Below, one piece after another: positions 3,502 through 49,513 of a DNA stretch of 49,724 nt. How positions within the stretch are numbered: the first letter of the stretch is position 1; each line of letters begins with the position of its first letter. The notes below the pieces were generated by a model. The model had not been told where the DNA came from. It was given only the letters and a program-made list of their open reading frames with translations, and made no database searches. Where the stretch lies: contig JAFCCJ010000002.1 of assembly GCA_017610305.1 (NCBI GenBank), positions 1-49,724 of the forward strand, read 5' to 3'. Source of the stretch: Candidatus Iainarchaeum sp. GTDB lineage: Archaea > Iainarchaeota > Iainarchaeia > Iainarchaeales > JAFCCJ01. The position numbers and the translations under genes are program-made.

Positions 3502-3507
3502 TAAAAA

Positions 3508-4737
3508 TTGAAACTAAAGGATTCCTTCCAGCTATCCCTAAACAATATTTTCCACAGGAAGTTGAGAGCATGGTTAACGCTGCTGGGCATAATCATAGGT
3601 GTTGCGGCAGTGGTTTCCATTGTTTCAATAGGGGAGGGGGCCTCCGCAAGCGTATCTGAAAATTTCTCCAGTTTTGGGGCAGACGTAATAACAATCACCC
3701 CTGGTTTCAGCAGCGCAGGCTCTTTTAGGGGTCCGGGAAGTGGGGGGCATGCCTCTTCTTTCAGCAATACTCCTGCAACTTCCACAGAAGAACCTGAACT
3801 CGGGAAACTGGATTTAGTTATAATTAAGGGCAATCCAAATGTGCAGCATACCAATGAAATTGTATCAGGGAGAGGTGATTTAGTTTTTCTGGCAGAACAA
3901 ATTACTGCCAGCATTCAGGGAGTTAACCCAACCACCTGGCCGGAAACTGATAACCTTGAACTTGAATCAGGAAGGCTGTTGGGTGCGAGCGATTCTTCGG
4001 TGGTGGTTATTGGAAATACAATTGCAAACGGGGTATTCAAGCAACCGATAACTGTTGGGAGGAGAATTACACTTGAGGATGTGCCATTTACTGTTGTCGG
4101 CATATTGGAGGAGGGAATAAGTGGTTCAACTGTCTTTATGCCATATAGGAGTGCATGGGATGTGACCGATGTGGAAAAAAATACATATTCCTCAATAAAG
4201 GCAAAAGTGAAGAATGAGGAAATTACTGAAGAAACTGTGGCAGAACTTACAGAGGCCTTAATGCTTTCCAGGAAGGTTACTGAAAGGGACCAGGATTTTA
4301 CTGTGAGTTCATTCCTAGCTTTGCAGGAACAGATAAATGAGGTTCTCGGAACATTGACCTTATTTTTGGCCGCAATTGCCGCAGTTTCCCTAATTGTTGG
4401 TGCTGTTGGAATTGCAAACAGCATGTTTACTTCAGTTCTGGAGAAAACCAAGGAGATAGGAATTATGAAGGCTTTGGGATCAACTGATGGGGAAATAATG
4501 GAACTTTTTGTGATTGAATCAGGGTTGTTTGGTTTTATTGGTGGGGGGCTTGGCGTAATTTTGGGGGTGGGCGGTTATCTTTTGCTGTCAATTTTTGTCG
4601 GATTAAATACGTTTGTGTCAATTGAACTAATGGCAATTGCAATGGTACTTTCAACAGTAATTGGCGTGGTTTCCGGTTTACTGCCTGCAAGGGCTGCATC
4701 GAAATTAAAGCCGATAGAAGCCCTGAGATATGAATAA
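3508..4737 (+). CDS. ABC transporter permease, FtsX/MacB family
   Basis: N-terminal TM, a large extracytoplasmic domain, then a C-terminal 3-TM FtsX-like module (KEIGIMKALGSTDGEI... PARAASKLKPIEALRYE). TTG start. Confidence 0.85.
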   Translation: MKLKDSFQLSLNNIFHRKLRAWLTLLGIIIGVAAVVSIVSIGEGASASVSENFSSFGADVITITPGFSSAGSFRGPGSGGHASSFSNTPATSTEEPELGKLDLVIIKGNPNVQHTNEIVSGRGDLVFLAEQITASIQGVNPTTWPETDNLELESGRLLGASDSSVVVIGNTIANGVFKQPITVGRRITLEDVPFTVVGILEEGISGSTVFMPYRSAWDVTDVEKNTYSSIKAKVKNEEITEETVAELTEALMLSRKVTERDQDFTVSSFLALQEQINEVLGTLTLFLAAIAAVSLIVGAVGIANSMFTSVLEKTKEIGIMKALGSTDGEIMELFVIESGLFGFIGGGLGVILGVGGYLLLSIFVGLNTFVSIELMAIAMVLSTVIGVVSGLLPARAASKLKPIEALRYE

Positions 4738-4775: not shown

Positions 4776-4886
4776 ATATTCGCTGTAAAAACAAGTATGC
4801 CTAGCCCCTTTATATTCGAGTTATACAAAATCTTTGAAGTTTAGGAAAAGGAATGTATAAATAGCAGTTTAATATACATTTAGAAT

Positions 4887-5264
4887 ATGAAAACCAGATT
4901 CATGATTCTTGCCATTGCAGCCATGCTGGCGTTAACTGGCTGTATTGATGGGGACAGAATTGTTGGGGAAGTAGAACTTGAAGGTACAATTCTTTGCAAG
5001 AGCTGGGAAAAAACACATGAAAGTTATTGTGCACAAGGGAGTGATTACTTCACCCTGGACACTGGAGATGGGGAAAAAGTCCTGAAATTTTCAGAGAATT
5101 TGTATAATTATTGCAGTCAAAATGTCAGGATTTCAGCAAATGAATTGTTAAGGACTATTGAATGTCCTGAGGATTCTGTTTCCCAATGCGCAGTTCAGCC
5201 TGGGCAAGAAGGATTTGTATGCACTATTTACGATGTGCTTGAAATTTCCCCAGGAATTGGCTAA
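4887..5264 (+). CDS. Small secreted Cys-rich putative lipoprotein
   Basis: Signal peptide ending in the lipobox-like LALTGC. Six further cysteines. TATA-like TGTATAAATAG lies about 25-35 nt upstream. Confidence 0.6.
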   Translation: MKTRFMILAIAAMLALTGCIDGDRIVGEVELEGTILCKSWEKTHESYCAQGSDYFTLDTGDGEKVLKFSENLYNYCSQNVRISANELLRTIECPEDSVSQCAVQPGQEGFVCTIYDVLEISPGIG

Positions 5265-5296
5265 AAATACAGGAGGAATATTGTTTTTACATGGGG

Positions 5297-5312
5297 CAAG
5301 GTTTTAATATAA
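5297..5312 (+). promoter_or_regulatory. BRE/TATA-like 16-mer CAAGGTTTTAATATAA (copy 2), about 26 nt upstream of ATG 5338
   Basis: Exact repeat of 4760-4775. The spacing fits an archaeal promoter driving a leaderless or short-leader mRNA. Confidence 0.45.
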
Positions 5313-5337
5313 GTTTTTGCTAATTATAACGGTTAAA

Positions 5338-6873
5338 ATGTATGATGAAGGCAAAGATAAGTATGATTCTCCCAGTATGGGTGGGGATGATATTGAATTT
5401 GAGGATGAGAGCCCTTTAGGGCAGGCATCTGAGATTGGCGGACAGATTGCCGATAAGGCTGTTCCTCTACTTAAGAAATTCTGGCCCCTGATTCTTATTG
5501 CAATTATTGTTCTTGTTGTGGGGTTTTTCCTGTATTCATTCTTCATAGGCGATATGAGGAATGTCACTATTTCGGTGGTAGATACTGAAGGGGATGAGAT
5601 TTCAACAAGCATTGCTACAATAACTGATTCAGGCGGGAATTCTGTCGGGGAAATTAAGAACGGTAGCGGAACAATTTCACTAAGGCAGGGCAATACTTAC
5701 GATGCAGAAGCCGGTGCACCAACATACAAAACAGAGATCGGAAAATCATTCACTGTTTCAGGTAACGAAGACTGGGAAATTGCGCTGGAAAAAGACCTTG
5801 ATTTGGAACTGGAACTACAAGGAGCCGAACCAACAAGCTTTGCGACAGGCGAAACCAAAGTAATTCCGGTTACTGTAATTAACAACACATCGAGGGAGCA
5901 AAACATAAGGTTGGTTGTGGATGGGGCACTTGGCAAGGCCACCTCTTCGATAGAGCTTGTGCGCGAGAATAATGAAACTGTTACTGTGGTTCCTGTCGGG
6001 AGCCTTGATGCGGCAATTAATTTAACAATTGACTCAAAGGCAGATGCAGATGATGATATTGATGGCGCCATAAGGATTAAAGGCCTGGACAATTCAAATG
6101 CTAAGATAAAAATCAGTGGCGCGGAAATTATTGAGTTTGATAGCGGGGATTTTGACACGGATGCTAGGATTAATTTCTCGACTGTGGATGCTGGAACCAG
6201 AAATGTTGAAAAGGAATTCAAGATTGAAAATAAATCAAGAGATTTTACAATAACCGATATCTCCTTCAGCCTTAACATATCAAACGATATGACAAACAAC
6301 ACCAAGGAGGAAATAAGGAGCTGGTTTAGTTTCTCCCCGGAAAGCATTGAGCAATTGGCGCCCGGAACCGAAAGAACCGTTAAAGTTCTCCTCAATATTC
6401 CTGTGAAAGTGACCATTGCCGAAAATCAGGACACTGAATCGGTCGACGGGGAGCTAGTGGTGAATTCAGGAATTGGCACAAGGGCGCTGAACATAAACCT
6501 TAAAGTCAGGCCTGTGAGGGTTAATCTCGATCTAACAGGCCTTGATTCAAGCTATAAGATAAACAAGGTGGAGGGCAGTTATCCAACAAAAATTGACACT
6601 CTAATCGTGAACAACAAGAGTGAAGTTAGTGTTGAACTTATTAGCCTCATCCCTAATTGCGATGGCACATCCCACCAATGGATTGACTTATCAAGCGATG
6701 AATTTGATTTGGGTCCGGGAGACAAGAAGACTATCAAGATGATAATTGATGTGCCTCCGACAGAGGAAAATGACACAAAGTTATGTAACATAATAATGCA
6801 GTACTTTGATCCTGTAAGAACCGGAGTAAGGATTCCGGAAACACACGATTTCACTATAGAAATAGGCGGATAA
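5338..6873 (+). CDS. Type II membrane-anchored extracellular protein with repeated beta-sandwich (CARDB/adhesin-like) segments
   Basis: The ORF opens at 5317 (TTG), but the ATG at 5338 lies about 26 nt after a TATA-like motif. It has an acidic N-terminus, one TM segment (ILIAIIVLVVGFFLYSFFI), then about 440 aa rich in T/N/D/E/I with NxT/S sites. Confidence 0.6.
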   Translation: MYDEGKDKYDSPSMGGDDIEFEDESPLGQASEIGGQIADKAVPLLKKFWPLILIAIIVLVVGFFLYSFFIGDMRNVTISVVDTEGDEISTSIATITDSGGNSVGEIKNGSGTISLRQGNTYDAEAGAPTYKTEIGKSFTVSGNEDWEIALEKDLDLELELQGAEPTSFATGETKVIPVTVINNTSREQNIRLVVDGALGKATSSIELVRENNETVTVVPVGSLDAAINLTIDSKADADDDIDGAIRIKGLDNSNAKIKISGAEIIEFDSGDFDTDARINFSTVDAGTRNVEKEFKIENKSRDFTITDISFSLNISNDMTNNTKEEIRSWFSFSPESIEQLAPGTERTVKVLLNIPVKVTIAENQDTESVDGELVVNSGIGTRALNINLKVRPVRVNLDLTGLDSSYKINKVEGSYPTKIDTLIVNNKSEVSVELISLIPNCDGTSHQWIDLSSDEFDLGPGDKKTIKMIIDVPPTEENDTKLCNIIMQYFDPVRTGVRIPETHDFTIEIGG

Positions 6874-16377: not shown

Positions 16378-16481
16378 GGACGGGTAGCCTAGTCTGGATA
16401 GGGCAACTGCCTCCTACCTTCTTTGTGATTAATGAGAAGGGTGTAAGCAGTAGGTCGGCGGTTCGAATCCGCCCCCGTCCG
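16378..16481 (+). tRNA. tRNA-Arg (anticodon CCU) with a 29-nt intron at the canonical 37/38 position (intron 16417-16445)
   Basis: Acceptor GGACGGG/CCCGTCC, D-arm GCCT..GGGC, anticodon stem ACTGC/GCAGT, loop CT-CCT-A|intron|A and T-arm GGCGG-TTCGAAT-CCGCC. The intron forms a CCTTCT/AGAAGG helix, and the BHB-like 3-nt bulges are TA|C and TA|A. Confidence 0.85.
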
Positions 16482-20727: not shown

Positions 20728-21492
20728 TTACCTGCCTCTGTTAATATTATGTAAAAACTTCTTTTTAATAGTTTTTATCTTCAGGTAAACGTCAATTGCA
20801 AAATCCCCTAATAGGCTGAATAAAATTGAGGCTACAACGATATCTGGTGCGGAAGCAATAGTTTTTGAGAAGAAAAGGTCAGGGGTTGCTATTAAGGAAT
20901 AGACTGAAACCGCAAAAAAGCCGAACAAAACACCGTAAAAAAGGTTTTTGGCTATTTCTTCCTTATAGTTGTTTAGTAGCCTTATGGAAAAAATTACCCC
21001 GAATGCGAAGAAAGCTGGCAGGGGGATGTATATTGAATCGAAAGAGGGGTAGACTGAAAACAAGGTTTGGACAATGAATATTGAAATTATGGCATAGCCT
21101 ATTGTTAATGCGAATAACCTTTCAAGGAATATTTTTACATTTTTCAGGATCCCTCCTTTAAAGTAGAAAAGACAGGTTTTTGAGAAGAAAATATTGCTAA
21201 ATCTTGAATCAAATATGCTAGTTATTTTGTATATAATATAACCAAATATGAACGAGGATAAAAACAACGCTACGAGCAGCAGAATATGAGGACTAACTTC
21301 CTTAAGAAAGGAATAGAAAAACACGTCCTCTTCAAGGAACTTTATTGTTAAATCAAGATAACGAAGAACTTCATTAATTAGAAACTCAGTGGGGATTGTT
21401 ATCAATATCAGCCCCAAAAGAATCGTAACAATAATAATAATCGGACGATACTTCGCAAACCCGTTTTTTTCATTCTTTGAATTAGTAACCAT
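20728..21492 (-). CDS. Polytopic membrane protein, unknown function
   Basis: 254 aa with about 7 hydrophobic segments, AT-rich. Confidence 0.55.
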   Translation of the reverse strand: MVTNSKNEKNGFAKYRPIIIIVTILLGLILITIPTEFLINEVLRYLDLTIKFLEEDVFFYSFLKEVSPHILLLVALFLSSFIFGYIIYKITSIFDSRFSNIFFSKTCLFYFKGGILKNVKIFLERLFALTIGYAIISIFIVQTLFSVYPSFDSIYIPLPAFFAFGVIFSIRLLNNYKEEIAKNLFYGVLFGFFAVSVYSLIATPDLFFSKTIASAPDIVVASILFSLLGDFAIDVYLKIKTIKKKFLHNINRGR

Positions 21493-21515
21493 TTCCCAAA
21501 ATAAGGCGCTTACTG

Positions 21516-21809
21516 CTATATAAAATTATCTCTAACTATACTCTCATTCAGAAGCCTCTTGGCATGTTTGGCGACATTTTTTCTGGCTTTTTCCGAAAGC
21601 ATCTCAACATCATTTTTAGTCAAAGTGCTTTTTTGAGCTAATCTTTCAGTTTCCTTGAAATCTTCCTCAAGATAAAGTTCAACAGATTCTTTCAGGTTTT
21701 TCAGCGCGCTTTTTTTGGTTCTTCCTTGGGAAGCGACTCCCAATTCAGGGCAATGGGAAACAAACCATTTTCCCTCTTTTGTTATAACTGCTGAAAATTT
21801 CATTTCCAT
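21516..21809 (-). CDS. HicB-like (UPF0150) antitoxin-fold protein with a C-terminal helical extension
   Basis: MEMKFSAVITKEGKWFVSHCPELGVASQGRTKKSALKNLKESVELYLEE is the classic HicB N-domain pattern. Internal start chosen. Confidence 0.6.
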   Translation of the reverse strand: MEMKFSAVITKEGKWFVSHCPELGVASQGRTKKSALKNLKESVELYLEEDFKETERLAQKSTLTKNDVEMLSEKARKNVAKHAKRLLNESIVRDNFI

Positions 21810-21855
21810 TATTTCACCTGATAAATCTATTGCTTTACCACTATAAAAACATATA

Positions 21856-22170
21856 CTAGCAATAACTTGCGGCAATTTCCAGTTCATTTTTTTCGTCCTC
21901 CTTCCCAATTAATTTCCCCATAACTCGCCATACGTCTTCCACAAAATAGGAATCATTTTCCTCTTTCACCAATTCCCTTTCCAGCAGGCTGGCGAGCGGG
22001 CGGTAAATTTCCGCGGAATCCATGCCTGCCCTGTGCGCAATTGAGAATAATTTCAGTTTCCCATTTTCTGTTAAGCATTTCAGGATTTTCGCTTCCTCAA
22101 TCGTGATTTCCCCCTCTTCCGCCAGCCTGAAAAGCGCAGCGCTAACGATGTTTAACCTAAATTCACTCAT
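21856..22170 (-). CDS. Small winged-helix-like protein, unknown function
   Basis: Taken from the internal ATG (MSEFRLNIV...). EEAKILKCLTENGKLKLFSIAHRAGMDSAEIYRPLASLLERELV looks like MarR/wHTH. Confidence 0.45.
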   Translation of the reverse strand: MSEFRLNIVSAALFRLAEEGEITIEEAKILKCLTENGKLKLFSIAHRAGMDSAEIYRPLASLLERELVKEENDSYFVEDVWRVMGKLIGKEDEKNELEIAASYC

Positions 22171-22301
22171 GAAATTTTCCCCCTCAAAATTAAATGGACG
22201 TGTCCCCCTGTGAAGGGGGACACTGGGCAGGCTCACCACTTGGCCAAATGGTCTAGATGTTCCGCCTGATAGTATCCTGTTCCGGGCATTAATATAGCTG
22301 C

Positions 22302-22370
22302 GGTTGATAAGAAATAAACCAAATGGTTGATTTTAACCCAAAAGCGAGAAATCAACCAAAAAGTTGATTT
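22302..22370. promoter_or_regulatory. Cluster of GTTGAT-type repeats, including a perfect 8-bp inverted repeat, upstream of the paralogue array
   Basis: GGTTGAT at 22302-22308, GGTTGATTTT at 22325-22334, and AAATCAAC (22349-22356) / GTTGATTT (22363-22370) separated by 6 nt. Confidence 0.4.
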
Positions 22371-22402
22371 TTAAAGGATTTTGGTCCTTCTGTATATATT
22401 CT

Positions 22403-23230
22403 ATGGTGGGGACCATAATACTGCCTAAAATAGGGCAGCCGAAAACTACGCGCGATGCGGTAATTTCCATTCTCTCACAGGAATGGCCACTTTCTGCAAA
22501 ACAGATTTATAACAAGCTCCAGAGGGAGAACGGGTTTGCTGTTTCTTATCAGGCTGTGCATAAAATTTTGAAGGATTTAGAGAACGAAAACATAATCTGC
22601 AGGAATAATTTGGCATATTCAATAAACCCTGAATGGGTTGAACGCGTCGGTAATTTCGCGAAAATGATGCAGGAAAGTTTCGCATCCTTTTCCAATGGTT
22701 CGGACAGCAACAATTTCTCCCTTGATTCCATTTACAATCTGGATAGTTTCATAGTTGAAATGGCTGAAAAGATAATGTCCCCTGAAAGGCAAACCTTGTG
22801 CATATACTGGTGCCATTTTTGGATTCCCCTCTTCCAGAAGGAAACCTATAAGAGACTGAAGCGCATGATTGAGGCCAGCAATTCCTATGGAATAAGCAAA
22901 TCATCAACCATTTTGGACCAATGGTGCGAAAAATTCTGGACCGGTAACAAGGTCAGGATGAAATGCGGAATTGACCTCGATTCACCTGATTTCATAATTT
23001 ACGGGGATTTTGTTATTCAGGTCTATTATCCTAAAGAGATTGTAAAGGAACTTGACAAAATCTATTCCTCCTGCAGCAAAATCTCGGATTTTGACATGAG
23101 CTCAATGTTCGAGAATGTGTTCGAAAAAAAGACCAAAATCCCAATTACCATAAACAGGAATCCTGAACTGGCGGAACAGTTGAGGGGGAAAATGCTGGGA
23201 TATTTTAAGGGTGGGAAGAATGGCAAGTAG
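22403..23230 (+). CDS. Paralogue 1: wHTH plus uncharacterised ~200-aa C-terminal domain
   Basis: wHTH ISILSQEWPLSAKQIYNKLQRENGFAVSYQAVHKILKDLENENII. The ATG at 22403 gives an N-terminus colinear with the other three copies. Confidence 0.7.
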   Translation: MVGTIILPKIGQPKTTRDAVISILSQEWPLSAKQIYNKLQRENGFAVSYQAVHKILKDLENENIICRNNLAYSINPEWVERVGNFAKMMQESFASFSNGSDSNNFSLDSIYNLDSFIVEMAEKIMSPERQTLCIYWCHFWIPLFQKETYKRLKRMIEASNSYGISKSSTILDQWCEKFWTGNKVRMKCGIDLDSPDFIIYGDFVIQVYYPKEIVKELDKIYSSCSKISDFDMSSMFENVFEKKTKIPITINRNPELAEQLRGKMLGYFKGGKNGK

Positions 23231-24083
23231 TTTGAGTTTGCTGAAGTTGAATGTGAATAATTCCTCCACACAGGAGAAGATAGTATCAATTCTCAGTGAA
23301 CGGTGGCCCCTTACAGCTAAGGAAATCTACAATACTTTAATCAGGGAGTTCGGGATGGAAGTTTCATACCAAGCAGTTCATAAAATATTAACTGATTTGG
23401 AAGAAAACCGAGTTATAGAAAAAAGCGCAAAAAACTATGAATTGAGTGACCAATGGATTAAGAGGGGAAAGGGGTTCTTTACCGAAATCGACAAGAGATA
23501 TTCCGATTCCTTCGGAAAATACGAAATAGACCCTAATTTTGAGGGCACAATTACACTTGAATTCAAAGATTACAGTTTATTTTGCGTAACAATAGCAAGA
23601 ATCATGGCGAGCAAGGCGCTTGTCGGAAACGGTCCAAATATCGTTATTACGCTTATGAAATATGGGTGGTGGCCATTTAAATTCAAATTCAAGGATTTGG
23701 AGTTGCTAGCAACAATGACGAAGAATAACCCAAAAGCTTATGCAATCCTCACTAACGATACTCCTTTTGGACGCTGGATACTAAAACAGTATGTAAGGGT
23801 TGGAGGAATAGCTGCCCCTATTGGGACTGAAATAGGTTTGAAAGAGGATATGCTAATTCAGGGGGATTCTATTGCAGAAATAAAATTTTCAGATGAGTCA
23901 TTGAAAATAATCAAAGAATCTTATGGTGAGCTACATGGATTGGACGATTTGTACAGGAAATTTGGCCTGAGAAAACAGCCACCCGAAATGCACGCAACAG
24001 TTAAAATAACAAAAAATCCGGCACTATCTGAATTGCTGAGGAAGCAGATAATTGATAGGTATTTTAAGGGGGTGATAAAATGA
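23220..24083 (+). CDS. Paralogue 2: wHTH plus uncharacterised C-terminal domain
   Basis: VSILSERWPLTAKEIYNTLIREFGMEVSYQAVHKILTDLEENRVIEK. Start is ATG 23220 (or GTG 23211) and overlaps the end of paralogue 1. Confidence 0.7.
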   Translation: MASSLSLLKLNVNNSSTQEKIVSILSERWPLTAKEIYNTLIREFGMEVSYQAVHKILTDLEENRVIEKSAKNYELSDQWIKRGKGFFTEIDKRYSDSFGKYEIDPNFEGTITLEFKDYSLFCVTIARIMASKALVGNGPNIVITLMKYGWWPFKFKFKDLELLATMTKNNPKAYAILTNDTPFGRWILKQYVRVGGIAAPIGTEIGLKEDMLIQGDSIAEIKFSDESLKIIKESYGELHGLDDLYRKFGLRKQPPEMHATVKITKNPALSELLRKQIIDRYFKGVIK

Positions 24084-24931
24084 CACTCAACATCACAATC
24101 CCACAACTGAATTCAAATTCCAAATCAACTAAAGATATGGTAATTTCGTTATTGAGCCAGAAATGGCCTTTGAATGCGATGGAGATTTACAACAGCGTGC
24201 AGAGGGAGTTTGGTGCGGGGGTTTCCTATCAGGCAGTGCACAAGATTTTGAATGAACTGCAGCAGGGAAAGATACTTGAAAAGAACGGGATGAGTTATCA
24301 GATAAGCAAGGGCTGGATAGAGCAGGTTAAGAAATTCGGCAGCGATTTGGATGAGAAATATACTAATGGGAAAACGATTGATTTTGAGAATTTTGAGAGC
24401 ATGCATATTACAATGGATAAATTCCTGGATTTCTGCAGGTTCATGATTTATGAGTTTTATATGAAGTTTCCAAACCCTGAGAAAAAGGATTGCATATGTT
24501 CGTGGGACCATGTTTATTCCCCAATAGGAATGAGTGAAAAAGACCACGAAATTCTGAGGGACTTGTTTTCCACAGCCCTGCACTATGCCCCCTGCCCAAA
24601 TAACACTTTTTTGGATAACTGGTTTGCGGAATACCTCAATGATTTGGGGAAAATATGCGTAAATGACGTTCAGTTCTCAGTCGGTAACGATACCTTTGTT
24701 CAGGGGGACTTTGTCATGGTGGCATATTTTAGTTCTGAATTCAAGAAAAATGTTGATGAGATTTATAAAAAGGTAAAATCCGTTGAGGAATTCAAGGTTT
24801 CAAACTATTTTGATATCATTAACAAAAAGGCTGAAATCAATATTTTGATTGTGAAAAACTCTTCTTTGGCTGGGCAGTTGAGGAAAGAGGGTAAAATGTT
24901 GTATGAATGCAAAGGGGAGGCTGGAAAATGA
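24080..24931 (+). CDS. Paralogue 3: wHTH plus uncharacterised C-terminal domain
   Basis: ISLLSQKWPLNAMEIYNSVQREFGAGVSYQAVHKILNELQQGKILEK. ATGA overlap with paralogue 2. Confidence 0.75.
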   Translation: MTLNITIPQLNSNSKSTKDMVISLLSQKWPLNAMEIYNSVQREFGAGVSYQAVHKILNELQQGKILEKNGMSYQISKGWIEQVKKFGSDLDEKYTNGKTIDFENFESMHITMDKFLDFCRFMIYEFYMKFPNPEKKDCICSWDHVYSPIGMSEKDHEILRDLFSTALHYAPCPNNTFLDNWFAEYLNDLGKICVNDVQFSVGNDTFVQGDFVMVAYFSSEFKKNVDEIYKKVKSVEEFKVSNYFDIINKKAEINILIVKNSSLAGQLRKEGKMLYECKGEAGK

Positions 24932-25761
24932 CCATAAACATAACTATGCCAGAATTGAATTCAACATCGACAAAGGACAAAGTAATTTCAATCCTTTCAA
25001 GGAAATGGCCAATGAGCACCAAGGAGATTTATAATGCGCTGCAACGGGAGTACGGCGTTGAAATATCTTATCAGGCAGTCCATAAGATAATAAGCCAGCT
25101 TCAAAATGACGACGTGATGATTAAGAATGGCAGAGACTTGGAGATAAGCAGGGAATGGATTTCTAAAGTGAAGAAGTTTAGCAATTCCCTAGATTCTAAA
25201 TATTCCAATGGGGAAATTGATTACGAAAATTTCAATGGTTCGCTTCATCTCAAATTAAACAATTTTGTTGAGCTGGGGAGATTCCTCATAAATGACTATT
25301 TCACAAAATTCCCGAATGAGGATAATAAAGATTGCGTGTGCTTCTGGAAGCACCATTATCCGGCCACCGGCGTTAGTGATACTGAGCATGAGAACATGAA
25401 AAAGATATTTGCGGAGCATGTCCATTACGGGATATCTAAATGCGACAATTTTTTAGACGTGTATTTTGGCAATTATTTGACGGGATTGGGCAAGAGAAAT
25501 ATCTCTGGCGCGGAGTTCAGTACCGGAATTGATACTTTCATAATGGGGGACTTTATCTGCCAGGTTTATTTCGAGCCTGGCTTTTACAAGGAAGTTGAGA
25601 AACTATATGAAAATACGCAATCGCAGGATGGCATGGACTTTTCCAAGCTTCTGGAACTGACCTCAAAAAAGACCGAGATTAATGTTTTGATTACTAAAAA
25701 TGCCTCTTTGGCAGATATGATGAGGGGGGAGGCGAAAGGAATATTTGAAAAATCCAAATAA
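24928..25761 (+). CDS. Paralogue 4: wHTH plus uncharacterised C-terminal domain
   Basis: ISILSRKWPMSTKEIYNALQREYGVEISYQAVHKIISQLQNDDVMIK. ATGA overlap with paralogue 3 when started at MTINITMPELN. Confidence 0.75.
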   Translation: MTINITMPELNSTSTKDKVISILSRKWPMSTKEIYNALQREYGVEISYQAVHKIISQLQNDDVMIKNGRDLEISREWISKVKKFSNSLDSKYSNGEIDYENFNGSLHLKLNNFVELGRFLINDYFTKFPNEDNKDCVCFWKHHYPATGVSDTEHENMKKIFAEHVHYGISKCDNFLDVYFGNYLTGLGKRNISGAEFSTGIDTFIMGDFICQVYFEPGFYKEVEKLYENTQSQDGMDFSKLLELTSKKTEINVLITKNASLADMMRGEAKGIFEKSK

Positions 25762-25762
25762 A

Positions 25763-26341
25763 TCATTTTTCAAAAAATGATGCAATCTCGAATTTTTCAA
25801 TCGCTACATACGCAATATCAAATGCCATAAACGCAAAAAAGAAAATCCATCCGAAATAGTTGAATAAAGCGAATAGAAAAACTGCCAATTTCATCGCGAA
25901 ACGGTATTGGAAAAAATAATTGGCTACTTTGTTTATTTTTTTGTTCTTTTCAACAAAATCATGCCCTATTTCATCAGATATTGCTGCCAGGGAGATTACT
26001 ATTAATGGAATCCATAAAAATTGTACAAATTCACTGAAAAACAAAATCACTAAAATAGTCAGCAAACCTATTTGATGGCCAATGTTATTGATTTTTCCTT
26101 TTAGAACAGCTGCGATTAGTATTGCGGCTAAAATAGAAGCTGCTGCGGGGCTTGATGCCATAGAGATTGCCCATAGAATTCCGACAAGGGGAGCTAAGAC
26201 TATAGCAACCCATTCTTTCGAAATCTTCTTATCAAAGATATCGTCGATTAATTTCACGCCAACACCAAACAGAATAAAGGAAATAATAAAATATATTGCA
26301 AGAATATGCTCTTCTGAAAAAATAAGATCTTCTAACAACAA
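25763..26341 (-). CDS. Six-TM membrane protein with two Asp-rich loop motifs (DDIFD, DEIGHD), function unknown
   Basis: 192 aa and last gene of the minus-strand cluster. Its stop is 1 nt from the convergent stop of paralogue 4. Confidence 0.6.
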   Translation of the reverse strand: MLLEDLIFSEEHILAIYFIISFILFGVGVKLIDDIFDKKISKEWVAIVLAPLVGILWAISMASSPAAASILAAILIAAVLKGKINNIGHQIGLLTILVILFFSEFVQFLWIPLIVISLAAISDEIGHDFVEKNKKINKVANYFFQYRFAMKLAVFLFALFNYFGWIFFFAFMAFDIAYVAIEKFEIASFFEK

Positions 26342-26377
26342 AAATAATCACCCGGATAATTTCTCTAAAATAAAAAC

Positions 26378-27457
26378 TCAATCAATAAAATTTTTGATTT
26401 CTCCATTTTTAATTCTATGATAATACTCTTTTCTCTTTGCAGGGTTTGAAAATGTTTTAGCTTTTAATAATCTTTCTTTTATTTCACTAATTAGCGGTCC
26501 ACATAAATTTTTATAATGCCCTAATGGATTATCAAAATCAGTTTTTATTGCTTTAGATAATAAATCTCCACTTCTAAGTGCAAAACTGATACCTTCTCCG
26601 CTACTTGAGCTTATAAGACCAGCTGCCTCCCCAACCAAAATTACATTCTTTTTTCCAAATTCAATTTCTTTTAAAGACCTAGGCCTAGCCCCAACAGCCG
26701 CTTCTCTTCGAATAAAAGTCTTATCAATATTTATTTTGGTTTTTCTTTTGAATTTTTCTTTGAATAAATTCATTTTTTCTTTTGAATTTTCATAGCAAAT
26801 CGATGTTGCTAATAACATTTCTTCATCTTTTGGGATGACCCACGAATAAAAATCTGTAATTTCTTTGTCATAAATAAAGTAAATATCATTAATTTTATCT
26901 GATTTTTTAACTATATCCTGTATTACTAAATATCGCCTTATCGGAACAGAAGATATTTTTCTTCTTATCGTTGAAGCTCCACCATCAGCACCAATTAAAT
27001 AATTACATTTAACTACTTTAGTCTTATCCCCATTTCGCAGAACGACATATATAATATTTTTAATAGAATCATAATCAATTAGAGTTGTACTAGGTAGAAG
27101 GTCAGCACTATTTGGAACTAGTGAAAGAAGCCAGTGATCAAATTCCCTTCTTTTAATATTTAAAAAATCTCTATTTAATCTTAACTCCAGATTATTGTCC
27201 CAGTCATCAATAACAAATTGCGGTCTTTCTGGTTTTGAAAAAACTTTTGATGGAATATCTAAATTTCTAAGAAACTGCAGTGTTCTTTCAACAAGAATTC
27301 CGCCACAAGGTTTTTCTCGGGGGAAATTATCTCTATCTATTATTAAAGTACTATATTTATTTGAAATATTTTTTCCTAGAATACATCCTGCGGGCCCCGC
27401 CCCTACAATAATCACATCATAACTTTCTTGAATCGAATCAAAATCTATATGGGTCAT
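26378..27457 (-). CDS. FAD-dependent geranylgeranyl-reductase-family oxidoreductase
   Basis: YDVIIVGAGPAGCILGKNIS...LIIDRDNFPREKPCGGIL (dinucleotide fold plus the PCGG motif typical of GGR/BchP/ChlP), then later GEAAGLISSSSGEGI. Confidence 0.75.
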   Translation of the reverse strand: MTHIDFDSIQESYDVIIVGAGPAGCILGKNISNKYSTLIIDRDNFPREKPCGGILVERTLQFLRNLDIPSKVFSKPERPQFVIDDWDNNLELRLNRDFLNIKRREFDHWLLSLVPNSADLLPSTTLIDYDSIKNIIYVVLRNGDKTKVVKCNYLIGADGGASTIRRKISSVPIRRYLVIQDIVKKSDKINDIYFIYDKEITDFYSWVIPKDEEMLLATSICYENSKEKMNLFKEKFKRKTKINIDKTFIRREAAVGARPRSLKEIEFGKKNVILVGEAAGLISSSSGEGISFALRSGDLLSKAIKTDFDNPLGHYKNLCGPLISEIKERLLKAKTFSNPAKRKEYYHRIKNGEIKNFID

Positions 27458-27495
27458 AGTACATCACCAATTAAATATTTCAACCGATAAAAATA

Positions 27496-28083
27496 TCATT
27501 TCAAATCTGTTTCCCACTTTGCCCATAATTCACTTTTTATCTTGGCAATTTTTTTCGGGTTAGCATAAATGAATTCACAATATGGATCCCCCTGAGCAAT
27601 ACAATGGGTCTCAATGGCTTCATTGGGTTGATTAAATAAGACATTAAATGACCCAGCATATAATCCTGCAGTTATGATGTCAACAGGGAATTTACTTGCC
27701 CCATACATGTGCACATACCTCATTGCAACCGGGGAATTATCAAATCTAGTGATTACTTTTTTTTCTTCCATGCTAAATTTGGTTATACTTGCTTTACCAT
27801 AGCCTGCCAAAGTAACTATCTCCGTATATAGTTTTGCCAATTCTCTACCGGCAGATCTTGTATTTCTTCTCAATTCTTTCGAATATTCCTCCGTTCCTTT
27901 TTTCGCATTTTTATAAATTAGATCGTGAGCTTTAGAGTAACCAAAATCATCTATTAAGTTATGAATAAGCGAGACCGAATAATCTGCGGGATTCAAAATA
28001 ACTGGAATATTATATATATTAATTTTGCCCTCTTCCAATTTTAAGGCATTGGACATTAACAGTTTTGCAGCAAATCTAAACAT
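27496..28083 (-). CDS. V4R (4-vinyl reductase) domain protein
   Basis: C-terminal hallmark ETHCIAQGDPYCEFIY. It is colinear over its full length with the second V4R protein at 32601-33164. It overlaps the UbiA gene's 3' end by 28 nt; an alternative start at 28056 would form a TAATG junction. Confidence 0.65.
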   Translation of the reverse strand: MFRFAAKLLMSNALKLEEGKINIYNIPVILNPADYSVSLIHNLIDDFGYSKAHDLIYKNAKKGTEEYSKELRRNTRSAGRELAKLYTEIVTLAGYGKASITKFSMEEKKVITRFDNSPVAMRYVHMYGASKFPVDIITAGLYAGSFNVLFNQPNEAIETHCIAQGDPYCEFIYANPKKIAKIKSELWAKWETDLK

Positions 28084-28949
28084 TTTATACTCACCTCATA
28101 TAAATAGGCAAATAAAATTAAGAATTCTATTAATGCCAAGGACATTGTCAACCATTTGAAAAAAGAAAACGCATTTTTTGAAGTTATCTCTTTGTAAAAT
28201 TTTTTAAAACAATATAAAAGAGGGATTAATACGATGAATAATATTGCATAAATAAAGGATATCTTGCCATTCAAAATTAAAAATAATAACGACAGAAACG
28301 AAATAAAATAAAGTAAGACTGCTGCAAAAAAGGATTTCTTTAATCCCAATATAACAACTAACGTTTTTGAATTCATTTCTAAATCAGCTTCATAATCTTC
28401 GAAATTTTTTGAAAATAATGCAGCTAAACCAAATAAAAATATAATTAAAAATTGCGGCCAAGGTATTAATTCAAAACTGTTATATACTCCCCAACCAATA
28501 ATTAATGGAAAAAGAGTATAAGTAATAGCAATAATAAAATCAGAAACTATGGGGAATCGTTTAAGTGTGGGAGGTACAGAATAAAAAATTGAAAATAGGG
28601 TCATTATAATAAAAAAAACAAAGTATTCGAATCTAAAAAAAGAATAAATAATCAAATTAGAAACTAAAAAAAGAACCGCTGAATAAATAAATGCTTTTCC
28701 CGTAGAAATTTTCCCTGAAGGTATTGGTCGATAAGATTTACTAATTCTATCTGATTCTACATCAAAAATAGCATTTAGAGTGTTAAAGCCGCCAATAAAA
28801 GCAAAAAAAGCAAAAAAGCCAATTATTATATAAAAGGTAGGAAAGAATTCAGACCCCATAACTAAACCAACAGTATACGCCAAAAAAATCATAACTACGG
28901 TTATGGGGTAAGGTAATTCTAGATAAGGTCTAATTTTATCCATTAGCAT
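28056..28949 (-). CDS. UbiA-superfamily membrane prenyltransferase (DGGGP-synthase-like; substrate not assignable by eye)
   Basis: First Asp-rich motif is NAIFDVESDRISKSYRPIPSGKIS. Second motif is FEDYEADLEMNSKTLVVILG. About 8-9 TM segments, 297 aa. Confidence 0.8.
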   Translation of the reverse strand: MLMDKIRPYLELPYPITVVMIFLAYTVGLVMGSEFFPTFYIIIGFFAFFAFIGGFNTLNAIFDVESDRISKSYRPIPSGKISTGKAFIYSAVLFLVSNLIIYSFFRFEYFVFFIIMTLFSIFYSVPPTLKRFPIVSDFIIAITYTLFPLIIGWGVYNSFELIPWPQFLIIFLFGLAALFSKNFEDYEADLEMNSKTLVVILGLKKSFFAAVLLYFISFLSLLFLILNGKISFIYAILFIVLIPLLYCFKKFYKEITSKNAFSFFKWLTMSLALIEFLILFAYLYEVSIKCLDLLQNC

Positions 28950-28967
28950 TAAAACGCCCCTAAAAAA

Positions 28968-29732
28968 TTAAATCTTATATTCTTCTTCTTTGATTAGATG
29001 TATGCCGTTTGAACCAATTTCGTAAAGTATAGATTTTTTTTCATGCGAAGTATATCTCATTTTTCGGATAATCATACTCCTATTTTCAACACTTCCAACT
29101 CCCAAATAATAAAGGGCAATAACACCATCACAAATAAATTCTGAAATATTGTCTGCCGAAAGAAAATTGCTCTTTTCAGGAAGTTCAGTAGTGAGCATAA
29201 CTGTCGCATCAAATAATCGGATTTTGTTCATTAAATGGTATAAGAGGGATTTTGCAACAACCTTTTCAGTTCGGGGGATTGGGGAAACTGATTCAGCAAC
29301 CTGCACCATCGAGAATGCTGTGTCCTCGCGCATTCCGGAAACTAAAAGGGAATCTGTGAATGTGGTCAGGGAATCAAGAACAATTCTTTTCGGGGTGAAT
29401 GCGGTGTATAAATCGTAAATTTTTTCGAGGGCGTTATCTGACTGGACAACATCAAAATATTCTATTTTGAGGAGGTTTTTCTGCTCCAAACCCTCAATAT
29501 CCCAGCCAAAATTGGTGCCAGCCTTAATCAGTTCCTTTCGCTTCTGCTCTGTTGAAATGTACAAACCTTTCTCGCCGAAGAGTTTTGCGCCATTAATCAG
29601 GTACTGCATGCATAGTGTGCTTTTACCAGTTCCAGCCCCGCCTGAAACAAGGACAACGTTGTTTTTCGGGATTCCCCCCTCAAGGGCCTTATCCAAACCC
29701 GGGATTCCAGTTTTTACCTTTTCAACTGCCAT
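28968..29732 (-). CDS. Single-domain KaiC/RadA-like (RecA-superfamily, COG0467-like) ATPase
   Basis: GIPGLDKALEGGIPKNNVVLVSGGAGTGKSTLCMQY (Walker A), Walker B-like IVLDSLT, 254 aa. Confidence 0.8.
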   Translation of the reverse strand: MAVEKVKTGIPGLDKALEGGIPKNNVVLVSGGAGTGKSTLCMQYLINGAKLFGEKGLYISTEQKRKELIKAGTNFGWDIEGLEQKNLLKIEYFDVVQSDNALEKIYDLYTAFTPKRIVLDSLTTFTDSLLVSGMREDTAFSMVQVAESVSPIPRTEKVVAKSLLYHLMNKIRLFDATVMLTTELPEKSNFLSADNISEFICDGVIALYYLGVGSVENRSMIIRKMRYTSHEKKSILYEIGSNGIHLIKEEEYKI

Positions 29733-29842
29733 AGTATCCTTACTATAAAGGCACTCACTGGTATAAAAAGCTTTCTCGGGGCGTTTAGGGCGTTAAAGAA
29801 AAGGATAATAAACTCATTGAACTTAATTTAAAAGGTGAGAAA

Positions 29843-30217
29843 ATGGTTGAATTTGGGCCGCATTTGATGATCGATGGTTATGGTTGCGATAGGGCGAAGC
29901 TGGATGATGAGGCATTGGTTAGGGGGATTCTGGAGGAATTGCCTTCTGAATTGGGGATGAAGATTTTAGGTGAGCCTGTTGTGGAAAAATATGGAGGCAA
30001 TGGGGGCCATGACCCTGGAGGAATAAGTGGTTTTGTGATAATTACTGACAGCCATATCTCAATCCATACAGTTCCCAAGAAGGGGTTTGTTTCTGTTGAT
30101 GTTTACTCCTGCAAGGAATTTGATGTTGAGAGGGCGAAGGAATATTTTAAGGATAAGTTTGGGATTGGGAAAATGGAAGTTAATTTAGTGAACCGGGGAA
30201 CGCATTACGGGGAATAG
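29843..30217 (+). CDS. speH: Pyruvoyl-dependent S-adenosylmethionine decarboxylase proenzyme family (SpeH-like)
   Basis: FGPHLMIDGYGCD and the self-processing region ITDSHISIHTVPKKGFVSVDVYSC. GGTGA lies upstream of the ATG. The processing site reads D-S rather than the usual E-S, so substrate is uncertain. Confidence 0.7.
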   Translation: MVEFGPHLMIDGYGCDRAKLDDEALVRGILEELPSELGMKILGEPVVEKYGGNGGHDPGGISGFVIITDSHISIHTVPKKGFVSVDVYSCKEFDVERAKEYFKDKFGIGKMEVNLVNRGTHYGE

Positions 30218-32600: not shown

Positions 32601-33164
32601 TTATTCAACCTTCAACTGCCGCCGGGGGTTCTTTTTGTTGAAATCAAAGTCATGGACCTCTTTTATTATGAATTCGCATTCCTTTTCGTTCATTGCGGCG
32701 CATTTTGTTTCAAGGCAGTCGAGGTCGGTTTTCAGTAAATTGGAGAAAATGCCAGCGAAAATCCCGCGCAGGAAATGGTCAACAGGCTCCTTTGACTTTC
32801 CATGGAGGGCGGTTGCCATTGGGGAACTGGAAACCACAATAATTGCGCGTTTTTTCTCGGGGCTGAAATCAATTATCTTTATCCCGCCCCATCCGGAAGC
32901 GGAAAAGAAATTTCGCATAAATGTTAATGCCCTGTCTCCCTGCATTCCAAAATCAAGGTTAAACTGCTTTGAAAGGTTTTTTCGCATTGAGTCCTTTACA
33001 GAATAATAAAGGTTGATGTTGGTTTCCTTGTCCCCTTTTGCGACAATTCCAATAAGAAGTTCTGTTGGGACAATCACAAAGGGGAGGTTCAGGAGATAGA
33101 AATTGTTGTGCTTGTACTTTAATCCATTTGTAAAAATAAACTTGTCAAAAAAGCTGTTAAGCAT
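32601..33164 (-). CDS. V4R domain protein (second copy)
   Basis: C-terminal ETKCAAMNEKECEFIIK. The N-terminus aligns with the 27496-28083 product. Confidence 0.6.
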   Translation of the reverse strand: MLNSFFDKFIFTNGLKYKHNNFYLLNLPFVIVPTELLIGIVAKGDKETNINLYYSVKDSMRKNLSKQFNLDFGMQGDRALTFMRNFFSASGWGGIKIIDFSPEKKRAIIVVSSSPMATALHGKSKEPVDHFLRGIFAGIFSNLLKTDLDCLETKCAAMNEKECEFIIKEVHDFDFNKKNPRRQLKVE

Positions 33165-49407: not shown

Positions 49408-49513
49408 GGGCCTGTGGTCTAGTGGTTATGACATCACGTTGACAAGTCTATAAGAAGTAATTTTTATTGACGCAGATTCGTGGGGATCGGCGGTTCGATT
49501 CCGCCCAGGCCCA
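49408..49513 (+). tRNA. tRNA-Val (anticodon GAC) with a 33-nt intron at 37/38 (intron 49445-49477)
   Basis: GGGCCTGTGGTCTAGTGGTTATGAC is a typical archaeal tRNA-Val 5' half. Anticodon stem TCACG/CGTGG, loop TT-GAC-A|intron|T, T-arm GGCGG-TTCGATT-CCGCC and discriminator A. The BHB-like fold is described in the findings. Confidence 0.8.

Follow-up and report, generated by a model that had tools for sequence, protein, structure and literature searches.

A KaiC-headed gene cluster of Candidatus Iainarchaeum sp. linking a UbiA-type prenyltransferase, V4R proteins and a geranylgeranyl reductase-like flavoprotein with putative TrmB-like regulators

The stretch of archaeal DNA analysed in this work (49,724 nucleotides of contig JAFCCJ010000002.1 from Candidatus Iainarchaeum sp., referred to as the window) contains a run of five closely spaced genes on the minus strand. 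In the order of transcription, they encode a KaiC-like ATPase of 254 aa (28968-29732), a UbiA-superfamily membrane prenyltransferase of 297 aa (28056-28949, hereafter UbiA), a stand-alone V4R protein of 195 aa, in which a weakly XylR_N-like N-terminus precedes the V4R domain (27496-28083), a flavoprotein of 359 aa probably belonging to the geranylgeranyl reductase (GGR) superfamily (26378-27457), and a small polytopic membrane protein of 192 aa (25763-26341), which we call Memb. The spacing is 18 nt between KaiC and UbiA, 38 nt between V4R and the flavoprotein gene, and 36 nt between the latter and Memb, while UbiA and V4R overlap by 28 nt. Four tandem paralogues on the plus strand (par1 to par4, 22364-25761), which resemble transcription factors of the TrmB family, converge on this operon, and only 1 nt separates the stop codon of par4 (25759-25761) from that of Memb (25763-25765). 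The original prediction, made from the sequence without database searches, had listed the five genes with their motifs, their spacing and the convergent stops, all of which were borne out by the open reading frame (ORF) list, the Pfam scans and our own reading of the sequence. Its corollary that the adjacent stops leave no room for separate terminators is too strict: at the junction, both strands contain runs of T and a short AT-rich sequence is repeated in inverted orientation (25763-25770 / 25773-25780), so that the two genes may share a terminator region overlapping both of their 3' ends.

According to Pfam, UbiA matches PF01040 with 121.9 bits (threshold 34.2), and it possesses both Asp motifs, N59xxxD63xxxD67 and D185xxxD189, which are invariant in the alignment of its homologues; it is thus a member of the UbiA superfamily. 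At the level of curated families its placement is less specific. In NCBIfam it scores highest with PRK12884 (120 bits; cut-off 269), an archaeal "prenyltransferase" family without a specific name. The scores for the digeranylgeranylglyceryl phosphate (DGGGP) synthases (PRK12882, 71.9 bits against 296; PRK12883, 71.8 against 353) and for ChlG/BchG (TIGR01476, 66.4 bits against 212.3; PRK07566, 67.7 against 313) are lower and far below the respective cut-offs. When the profile of the UbiA family was compared with the PDB, the best match was the DGGGP synthase MjDGGGPS (79.8 bits), and chlorophyll synthase scored 72.7 bits.

The flavoprotein matches the Pfam family FAD_binding_3 with 60 bits and contains the motifs GAGPAG, PREKPC51GG, Y204-x-W206-x-x-P209-K210 and GEAAG, of which PRxKPC, YxWxxPK and GxAAG are invariant in the alignment. 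Among the curated families of NCBIfam it comes closest to PRK11445, which is uncharacterised (231 bits; cut-off 303). For the superfamily model TIGR02032 (GG-red-SF, cut-off 158.8) the window protein reaches 147.1 bits and its counterparts in two other loci 153.3 (L004) and 187.4 bits (L013; loci from other contigs are numbered with the prefix L). The protein falls below the cut-offs both of BchP/ChlP (TIGR02023, 128.8 bits against 343.3) and of the archaeal digeranylgeranylglycerophospholipid reductase (NF041080, 49.6 bits against 580), and in a sequence search of the PDB the archaeal enzyme TaGGR (3oz2) scored 25 bits. As judged from these comparisons, it is probably a member of the GGR superfamily, nearer to BchP/ChlP than to the archaeal lipid reductases. 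Flavin halogenases provided the best sequence matches in the PDB, but these are limited to the FAD-binding N-terminus, and the flavoprotein has the GGR-type Cys of the PCGG motif, whereas halogenases have Lys instead; its identification as a halogenase was therefore rejected. In locus L007 the flavoprotein gene (1935-2978) is preceded by an in-frame stop and lacks a standard start before a degenerate FAD motif, VVGFGSAAAS; this could indicate a pseudogene, an error in sequencing or the use of an unusual start.

The V4R protein encoded between these two enzymes marginally exceeds the gathering threshold of PF02830 (31.5 against 31.0 bits). It exhibits a motif E158-x-H160-C161...C169, in which H160, C161 and C169 are invariant in the alignment, and which is covered by a weak match to the MopR/PoxR phenol-sensor domain. 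At E <= 0.01 it matched no NCBIfam family, BchJ included, and is therefore not BchJ-like. The V4R domain has been described as a binder of hydrophobic ligands (PMC2253512), and among related folds PoxR binds phenol and TRAPPC3 binds palmitate (PMC10933270). The window contains a second V4R gene on the minus strand (V4R2, 32601-33164; PF02830, 51 bits), separated from KaiC by genes for AdoMet_dc, ComB and FTHFS (formate-THF ligase) and probably a resident partner of KaiC. Its orthologues lie directly upstream of KaiC in L095 (52% identity) and 7 kb from the cluster in L002 (47%). In a rough neighbour-joining tree, calculated without support values, V4R proteins encoded next to prenyltransferases separate from those encoded next to KaiC, V4R2 among them, in agreement with separate functions in synthesis and in sensing. 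V4R domains were also encountered in other company, namely in an arrangement of PaaK-like adenylating enzyme, V4R and methyltransferase (L016, 3-2561), and together with a FIST-domain protein and a GGR-like flavoprotein (L020, 132-2394; L094, 3554-4825).

KaiC matches PF06745 with 181.5 bits (threshold 26.6) and retains intact Walker A (GGAGTGKST) and Walker B motifs, which makes it a KaiC-like ATPase; G31, G34, G36, K37, the Walker B residue D120, E183 and R226 are invariant across 11 KaiC sequences. It is not a circadian KaiC as defined by TIGR02655 (87.3 bits against 546), having a single domain and 254 aa. About 33 nt upstream of its ATG, a predicted archaeal promoter of the BRE/TATA type, GAAAGCTTTTTATAC, is located at 29762-29776 on the minus strand, and we regard it as the predicted promoter of the operon. 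The sequence GAAAG(G/C)TTTTTATA is found unchanged upstream of KaiC in the window, L001, L002 and L093. Within the promoter region (29762-29795) the string GAAAGNTTTTTATA is invariant in the four loci, and a direct repeat of CGCCCTAAACGCCC just upstream of the BRE/TATA element is common to the window and L093.

Memb has no Pfam family, and neither have 83 of its relatives that were scanned, although its homologues form a family of 305 representative clusters at E <= 1e-3. Its motifs DDIFD (D33, D37) and DEIGHD (D123, E124, D128) are present as originally described, but the AlphaFold2 model (pLDDT 80) places them at helix ends rather than in long loops. The near-invariant residues of the family are K30, D33, D37, K83, D85, D123, E124, R147, D175 and Y178. 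Foldseek found no match to the model in the PDB. CarS, a CDP-alcohol transferase and a small terpene cyclase were considered as identities for Memb, and were rejected since their signature motifs do not fit and neither the Pfam and NCBIfam scans of the protein nor the scan of its relatives returned them. An AdoMet decarboxylase domain was found fused to one relative of Memb, the Memb gene of L089 directly adjoins one for a pyruvoyl arginine decarboxylase, and the operon of the window has an AdoMet_dc gene (29843-30217) at its flank. There are hints, at the level of gene and domain neighbourhood, of a tie between the Memb family and pyruvoyl decarboxylases or polyamines.

The convergent array consists of par1 (22364-23230), par2 (23211-24083), par3 (24080-24931) and par4 (24907-25761). 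An AlphaFold2 model based on the four window copies (pLDDT 74) matches TrmBL2 (5bpd) with a Foldseek E-value of 1.4e-10, and its C-terminal domain also matches the phospholipase D (PLD) folds of Nuc and Zucchini. The architecture of the TrmB family, i.e. a winged helix-turn-helix (wHTH) domain, a coiled-coil helix and a PLD-like C-terminal domain, is thus recognizable at the fold level only: sequence identity to TrmB and TrmBL2 is about 10%, the three paralogues scanned (par1, par2 and par4) have no TrmB match in Pfam or NCBIfam, and no conserved H-x-K catalytic motif was found in the PLD-like domain. Homologues of the paralogues flank the cluster in every sufficiently long locus, in tandem arrays of one to five copies, and a TrmBL2-like gene lies beside the type D locus L018 described below. 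We infer that they regulate this operon, and we count them as part of the system, contrary to the initial view of them as mere neighbours.

Upstream of par1, on the plus strand, a TATA-like sequence TTAATATA is followed by repeated GGTTGAT/ATCAACC half-sites (22289-22368). The 18-mer ATCAACCAAATGGTTGAT occurs at two positions of the window, giving three matches over both strands where 0.17 is expected; L001 has three exact copies of it and L007 one, and corresponding sequences can be aligned in L093 and L094. In L001 and L007 it is kept though the flanking proteins are merely 25-40% identical. We interpret this element as a putative promoter/operator. Since the listed TTG start of par1 (22364) overlaps it, the real start of this gene is probably the ATG at 22403. 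Divergently from par1, a gene on the minus strand (21856-22239) encodes a small wHTH protein with a TrmB/MarR-type HTH (Pfam TrmB HTH, 27.2 bits), of which weak homologues are found at the equivalent place in L001 and L094.

The order KaiC-UbiA-V4R-flavoprotein, which we call type A, is kept in every readable contig (L001, L002/3/9, L004, L005/6, the latter being short, and L007, a GTDB metagenome-assembled genome labelled "uncultured archaeon"). Identities to the window proteins are 35-65% for UbiA, 57-73% for V4R and 52-71% for KaiC. Even the closest contig, L001, is only 70% identical to the window in DNA, and the recurrence of the order in independent contigs with DNA no more than 70% identical argues that it is not a product of chance. 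In L002 the fourth gene encodes a much more divergent GGR-like flavoprotein of equal length. The genes are rare: a word-indexed search of 5.8 billion proteins yielded at least three close relatives of UbiA, a lower bound because only the 8000 best word-sharing candidates were scored, and four of V4R, while a scan of GTDB genomes with the UbiA alignment added one further instance (L007) and one distant bacterial UbiA.

When metagenomes were scanned with the V4R alignment, 80 loci were obtained; among them, JGI metagenome loci with V4R proteins 31-35% identical to that of the window show three further arrangements. In type B (L010, L012, L015) the order is KaiC-V4R-UbiA; in type C (L013, L014) UbiA-V4R is followed by convergent GGR and KaiC genes; and in type D (L017, L018) an Amino_oxidase flavoprotein of the CrtI/PPO-like kind precedes V4R-UbiA, followed by a convergent KaiC gene. 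In types B-D UbiA and V4R are always neighbours, either overlapping or separated by 0-14 nt; their order varies, and KaiC is no more than 2 kb away. The V4R gene adjoins UbiA by no more than 14 nt, or overlaps it, in every locus of types A-D, suggesting translational coupling, and the two are probably co-translated. More distant V4R genes are paired with KaiC alone, and the loci centred on V4R, 600 kb in total, contain 17 KaiC ORFs, none of them more than 2 kb from the V4R gene; two more distant UbiA genes, taken as controls, have neither KaiC nor V4R neighbours. The neighbourhood test proposed with the original prediction therefore comes out in its favour, V4R and KaiC being co-conserved with UbiA and the flavoprotein in at least five other contigs and rearranged in the distant loci.

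The UbiA proteins of types B-D share one NCBIfam profile, with PRK12884 at about 110-123 bits and the ChlG and DGGGP synthase models close behind (ChlG/BchG at about 100-107 bits, DGGGP synthase at 72-107 bits). Most of the UbiA proteins linked to KaiC and V4R carry KDFEDxxxD as the second motif, which reads KNFEDxxxD in the window, and in a rough neighbour-joining tree they cluster apart from the single named DGGGP synthase reference. The type D flavoprotein passes the proto_IX_ox cut-off (101.9 bits against 97.85), although another model fits it better. In L013 a 428-aa neighbour was considered as a type 2 IDI and dismissed, the match being weak and C-terminal (58.6 bits against 281). L015 encodes a XerA-like tyrosine recombinase (4868-6070) about 2 kb from the type B cluster, and beside it a CheR-FtsZ/tubulin fusion-like ORF (3226-4716).

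Comparison with the loci that contain Memb homologues reveals two layers in this region: a resident frame composed of KaiC, Memb, the paralogue array, the small wHTH gene and V4R2, and a cassette, UbiA-V4R-flavoprotein, placed between KaiC and Memb. Memb homologues occur in the related systems L004, L092, L093 and L094/95. In L093, KaiC (73% identity) and Memb (56%) are accompanied by four convergent paralogues collinear with par4-par1 (61, 51, 49 and 39%), and the interval between KaiC and Memb is occupied by genes for a cis-prenyltransferase, a V4R protein 24% identical to that of the window, a 192-aa protein and a radical SAM enzyme, whose nearest relatives, at low scores, are haem enzymes of the NirJ/AhbD type. 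L094/95 contains, in this order, a V4R2-like gene, KaiC (61%), Memb (45%), genes for a 122-aa protein, two GGR-like flavoproteins and a FIST protein, and then the paralogues and the beta-CASP gene of the window. L092 is 81.7% identical to the window in DNA over par3-par4-Memb, yet identity ends about 96 nt inside the 5' end of Memb, beyond which a different, divergent UbiA gene is found. Finally, L089, a 275-kb contig syntenic with both flanks of the window, has only Memb and the arginine decarboxylase at this site.

The G+C content at third codon positions (GC3) divides the genes in the same manner. It is 0.215 in UbiA, 0.30 in the V4R gene of the cassette and 0.17 in the flavoprotein gene, compared to 0.40 in KaiC, 0.40-0.51 in par1-4 and 0.41-0.53 in the flanking genes; the split is repeated in L001 (6902-9479), whose host differs in G+C content, and the enzyme genes of L094 behave likewise. 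The idea of a self-contained module of five genes had to be abandoned. Memb is missing from L001, L002 and L007, stands alone in L089 and belongs to a separate family of about 300 clusters, and KaiC, by composition as well as evolution, goes with the paralogues and V4R2 in the frame.

Taking these observations together, we propose, with a probability of roughly 0.55, that the window contains a prenylate-and-reduce cassette acting on a hydrophobic acceptor and co-transcribed with a signalling frame of KaiC, V4R and TrmB-like proteins. With a polyprenyl diphosphate as the donor, UbiA would attach a polyprenyl group to an acceptor that is hydrophobic and possibly aromatic; the V4R protein of the cassette, which is soluble, would bind either this acceptor or the product; and the GGR-type flavoenzyme would reduce double bonds of the prenyl chain. 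KaiC, as the first gene of the operon under its own predicted BRE/TATA promoter, would be co-transcribed with the cassette, and could serve, in combination with V4R proteins as the ligand sensors, as a general switch or sensor hub driven by ATP; the frame would further comprise Memb, the four TrmB-like factors, the small wHTH protein with a conserved palindromic operator, and V4R2. The donor, acceptor and product, the direction of the flavoenzyme and the role of KaiC are inferred. The sequence of prenylation, chain modification and ligand binding by V4R is the part of the original prediction that remains the most economical reading, whereas the self-containment of the five genes does not hold. 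The flavoenzyme is replaced elsewhere by a divergent GGR-like or a CrtI/PPO-like enzyme, and other cassettes contain a cis-type prenyltransferase, which makes isoprenoid chemistry the common denominator. Since KaiC is conserved independently of the enzymes, it is more likely an ATP-dependent switch working with V4R sensors and TrmB-like factors than a catalytic helper of UbiA.

Several points weigh against this proposal or limit its reach. The acceptor of UbiA is unconstrained by the NCBIfam and PDB scores, which are equidistant between DGGGP synthase and chlorophyll synthase. KaiC is located directly upstream of UbiA in every type A locus, and a specific functional coupling of these two proteins may exist after all. 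Codon or expression bias, instead of transfer, could be the reason for the low GC3 in the cassette, and a single recent acquisition cannot explain the cassettes of both the window and L001, because these are just 65-73% identical. Both trees, of UbiA and of V4R, are rough and without support values. Furthermore, some loci are near-duplicates (L002/3/9, L005/6, L010/11/12 and L013/14) and many are short metagenomic contigs.

The combination of a UbiA protein and a GGR-type flavoprotein in an archaeon could at first sight be taken for ordinary core ether-lipid synthesis, with UbiA as the DGGGP synthase, the flavoprotein as the lipid saturase and the other genes as chance neighbours. DGGGP synthase is indeed among the best named families for UbiA (72 bits, and 79.8 bits for MjDGGGPS), the flavoprotein has the GGR motifs, and a polyprenyl synthase is encoded 5 kb away in L002. 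Nevertheless, we consider this explanation highly improbable. Both proteins turned out to lie outside the canonical archaeal lipid enzymes (72 bits against 296 and 353 for UbiA, 49.6 against 580 for the flavoprotein), and as neither reaches the cut-off of any curated lipid family while V4R and KaiC are co-conserved with UbiA over four gene arrangements, the scenario of core lipid genes with chance neighbours is hardly tenable. In addition, this UbiA family is extremely rare, while DGGGP synthase is universal in archaea, the syntenic L089 lacks the genes at this site, and the composition of the cassette looks foreign. A module for tetrapyrrole tails, akin to BchJ-BchG-BchP, deserves more attention: UbiA would act on a (bacterio)chlorophyllide- or haem-like macrocycle held by V4R, and the flavoprotein would reduce the tail. 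The ChlG/BchG scores are level with those of DGGGP synthase (66-68 bits in the window, about 100-107 in types B-D, 72.7 in the PDB), and the flavoprotein scores higher with BchP-ChlP (128.8 bits) than with the archaeal lipid reductases (49.6 bits). The type D flavoprotein above the proto_IX_ox cut-off, albeit with its better fit elsewhere, and the radical SAM enzyme of L093 near NirJ/AhbD, at low scores, point in the same direction, as does the bacteriochlorophyll (BChl) a synthase activity reported for an archaeal UbiA (Meng et al. 2009, cited in PMC3930316 and PMC11193907). On balance it is unlikely, for every one of these scores is far below the family cut-offs, V4R has no NCBIfam match, BchJ included, and no Mg-chelatase or other (B)Chl or haem gene was found in related loci or among the window ORFs scanned, which are a part of the total. 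Moreover, the other cassettes, with a cis-prenyltransferase or with two GGRs and a FIST protein, suggest general isoprenoid chemistry, and the samples, judged by their contig names only, look like dark sediment.

Two further explanations start from the variability of the site. It is tempting to regard it as a polymorphic locus for signalling or kin recognition, in which the cassette would make a strain-specific prenylated signal, V4R2 and KaiC would sense it, and the TrmB-like array would read it out. The frame is conserved while the enzymes and the V4R protein of the cassette are swapped even between genomes 82% identical in DNA; the V4R proteins fall into prenyltransferase-adjacent and KaiC-adjacent classes (in the rough tree); regulators are many and enzymes few; and the operator is conserved. 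However, no exporter, receptor or precursor peptide was identified, the arguments are architectural throughout, and we know of no archaeal precedent, so that the idea, drawn by analogy, is rather doubtful. The hypervariability of this chromosomal site among relatives also agrees with a conflict or defence island, i.e. an anti-virus or stress system that would remodel membrane isoprenoids under the control of KaiC. The low GC of the locus and neighbours of the toxin-antitoxin type (the HicB/DUF7387-like ORF at 21516-21908, AbiEii in L002 and NTP_transf_2 in L095), together with the XerA-like recombinase near L015, would fit such a function. Yet PADLOC-DB provided no meaningful match for any of the genes, only weak P-loop and HTH matches, nucleases, effectors of abortive infection and known sensors were not found, the enzymes belong to biosynthetic types, and the case is built on architecture and neighbours, which leads us to regard a role in defence as improbable.

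The prenylate-and-reduce cassette in a signalling frame, which we prefer, can be extended to a bolder and much more tentative model, in which the frame is a "plug-in" locus that would host interchangeable isoprenoid cassettes with matched V4R proteins and sense a strain-specific prenylated signal or specialised lipid; at present we would not bet on it.

The remainder of the window is that of an archaeal chromosome, marked by tRNAs with presumed introns, Nop5, ProRS and a beta-CASP nuclease. Pfam scans of the genes flanking the cluster identified generic archaeal housekeeping genes only, and an Rfam scan of the window returned three tRNAs and nothing else. Two of the tRNA genes (16378-16481, 104 nt, and 49408-49513, 106 nt) match the full 71-position tRNA model despite their length and presumably contain introns. 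Between the beta-CASP gene and the paralogues lies a 254-aa ORF without a family (20728-21492, GC3 0.38), followed by the HicB/DUF7387-like ORF already mentioned (21516-21908, GC3 0.31); unlike these ORFs of 20728-21908 with their lowered GC3, the small wHTH gene (21856-22239) has a GC3 of 0.53. The segment 20171-20727 (556 bp) contains no ORF of 110 aa or more.

We hope that this locus will help to elucidate the function of two protein groups at once. KaiC-like ATPases and stand-alone V4R proteins are abundant in archaea, and almost none of them has a known input or output; here both are linked to a presumed enzyme chemistry, in which a prenyl group is transferred and its chain reduced, and to a set of probable DNA-binding proteins whose putative operator can be recognised, which turns them into a testable system. 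Our results also caution against assigning the UbiA/GGR pairs of archaeal genomes to core lipid synthesis by default. If the model of a cassette within a frame is true, archaea possess a fixed and regulated site at which small isoprenoid pathways can be exchanged. The parts come from known superfamilies, while the linkage of KaiC, V4R and UbiA, the TrmB-like arrays and the organisation into frame and cassette were not found described in the searchable literature, which does not extend to the 2017 paper on KaiC hubs. Likewise, no publication joining V4R with UbiA, or KaiC with "hydrocarbon binding protein", was found there.

Among the known systems, the bchJ-bchG-bchP genes, which in purple bacteria belong to the operon bchE-J-G-orf428-bchP-idi, offer the closest parallel in enzyme content: here as there, a V4R protein, a UbiA-type synthase and a geranylgeranyl reductase are linked, prenylation would be followed by reduction of the chain with a carrier-like V4R protein at hand, and the window flavoprotein scores higher on BchP/ChlP than on archaeal lipid GGR models. 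On the other hand, the window enzymes miss the cut-offs, the V4R protein is not BchJ-like, the pigment context is absent, the host is an archaeon, and bchJ-bchG-bchP has no counterparts of KaiC, Memb and the TrmB-like regulators. The archaeal pair of DGGGP synthase and lipid reductase resembles the window proteins in the UbiA fold, both Asp motifs and the motifs of a GGR-type flavoprotein, but its genes are universal, whereas those of the window are rare, absent at the L089 site and linked to V4R and KaiC. An intermediate position, as for the window UbiA between DGGGP synthases and (B)Chl synthases, is held by archaeal BchG-like UbiA proteins, compared here by their description rather than by sequence: BChl a synthase activity is attributed to a UbiA from an MCG/Bathyarchaeota fosmid in the papers citing Meng et al. 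2009 (PMC3930316 and PMC11193907), and a Heimdallarchaeia "BCS" clade lies between DGGGP synthase and BchG (PMC11193907). In the searchable literature, the papers on these proteins report no KaiC or V4R context. With respect to the regulatory half, a role as hubs of signal transduction in archaea has been described for KaiC-like ATPases (Makarova, Galperin and Koonin 2017, cited in PMC5847659), and the window likewise has a single-domain KaiC-like ATPase encoded beside V4R proteins of the sensor type and wHTH proteins. The paralogues share with TrmB and TrmBL2 the wHTH domain, the long helix and the PLD-like C-terminal domain, and differ from them by an identity of about 10% and by their tandem arrays. 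The polymorphic signalling function considered above has its nearest parallel in the ComQXPA pherotype locus of Bacillus, where a conserved frame surrounds a hypervariable isoprenyl transferase and its equally hypervariable partners, just as an exchangeable set of prenyl enzymes is embedded in a conserved frame here. Should the "plug-in" locus prove true, archaea would have an equivalent of ComQXPA and other polymorphic pheromone loci, and for a KaiC-like "hub" ATPase there would be a first concrete pair of input and output.

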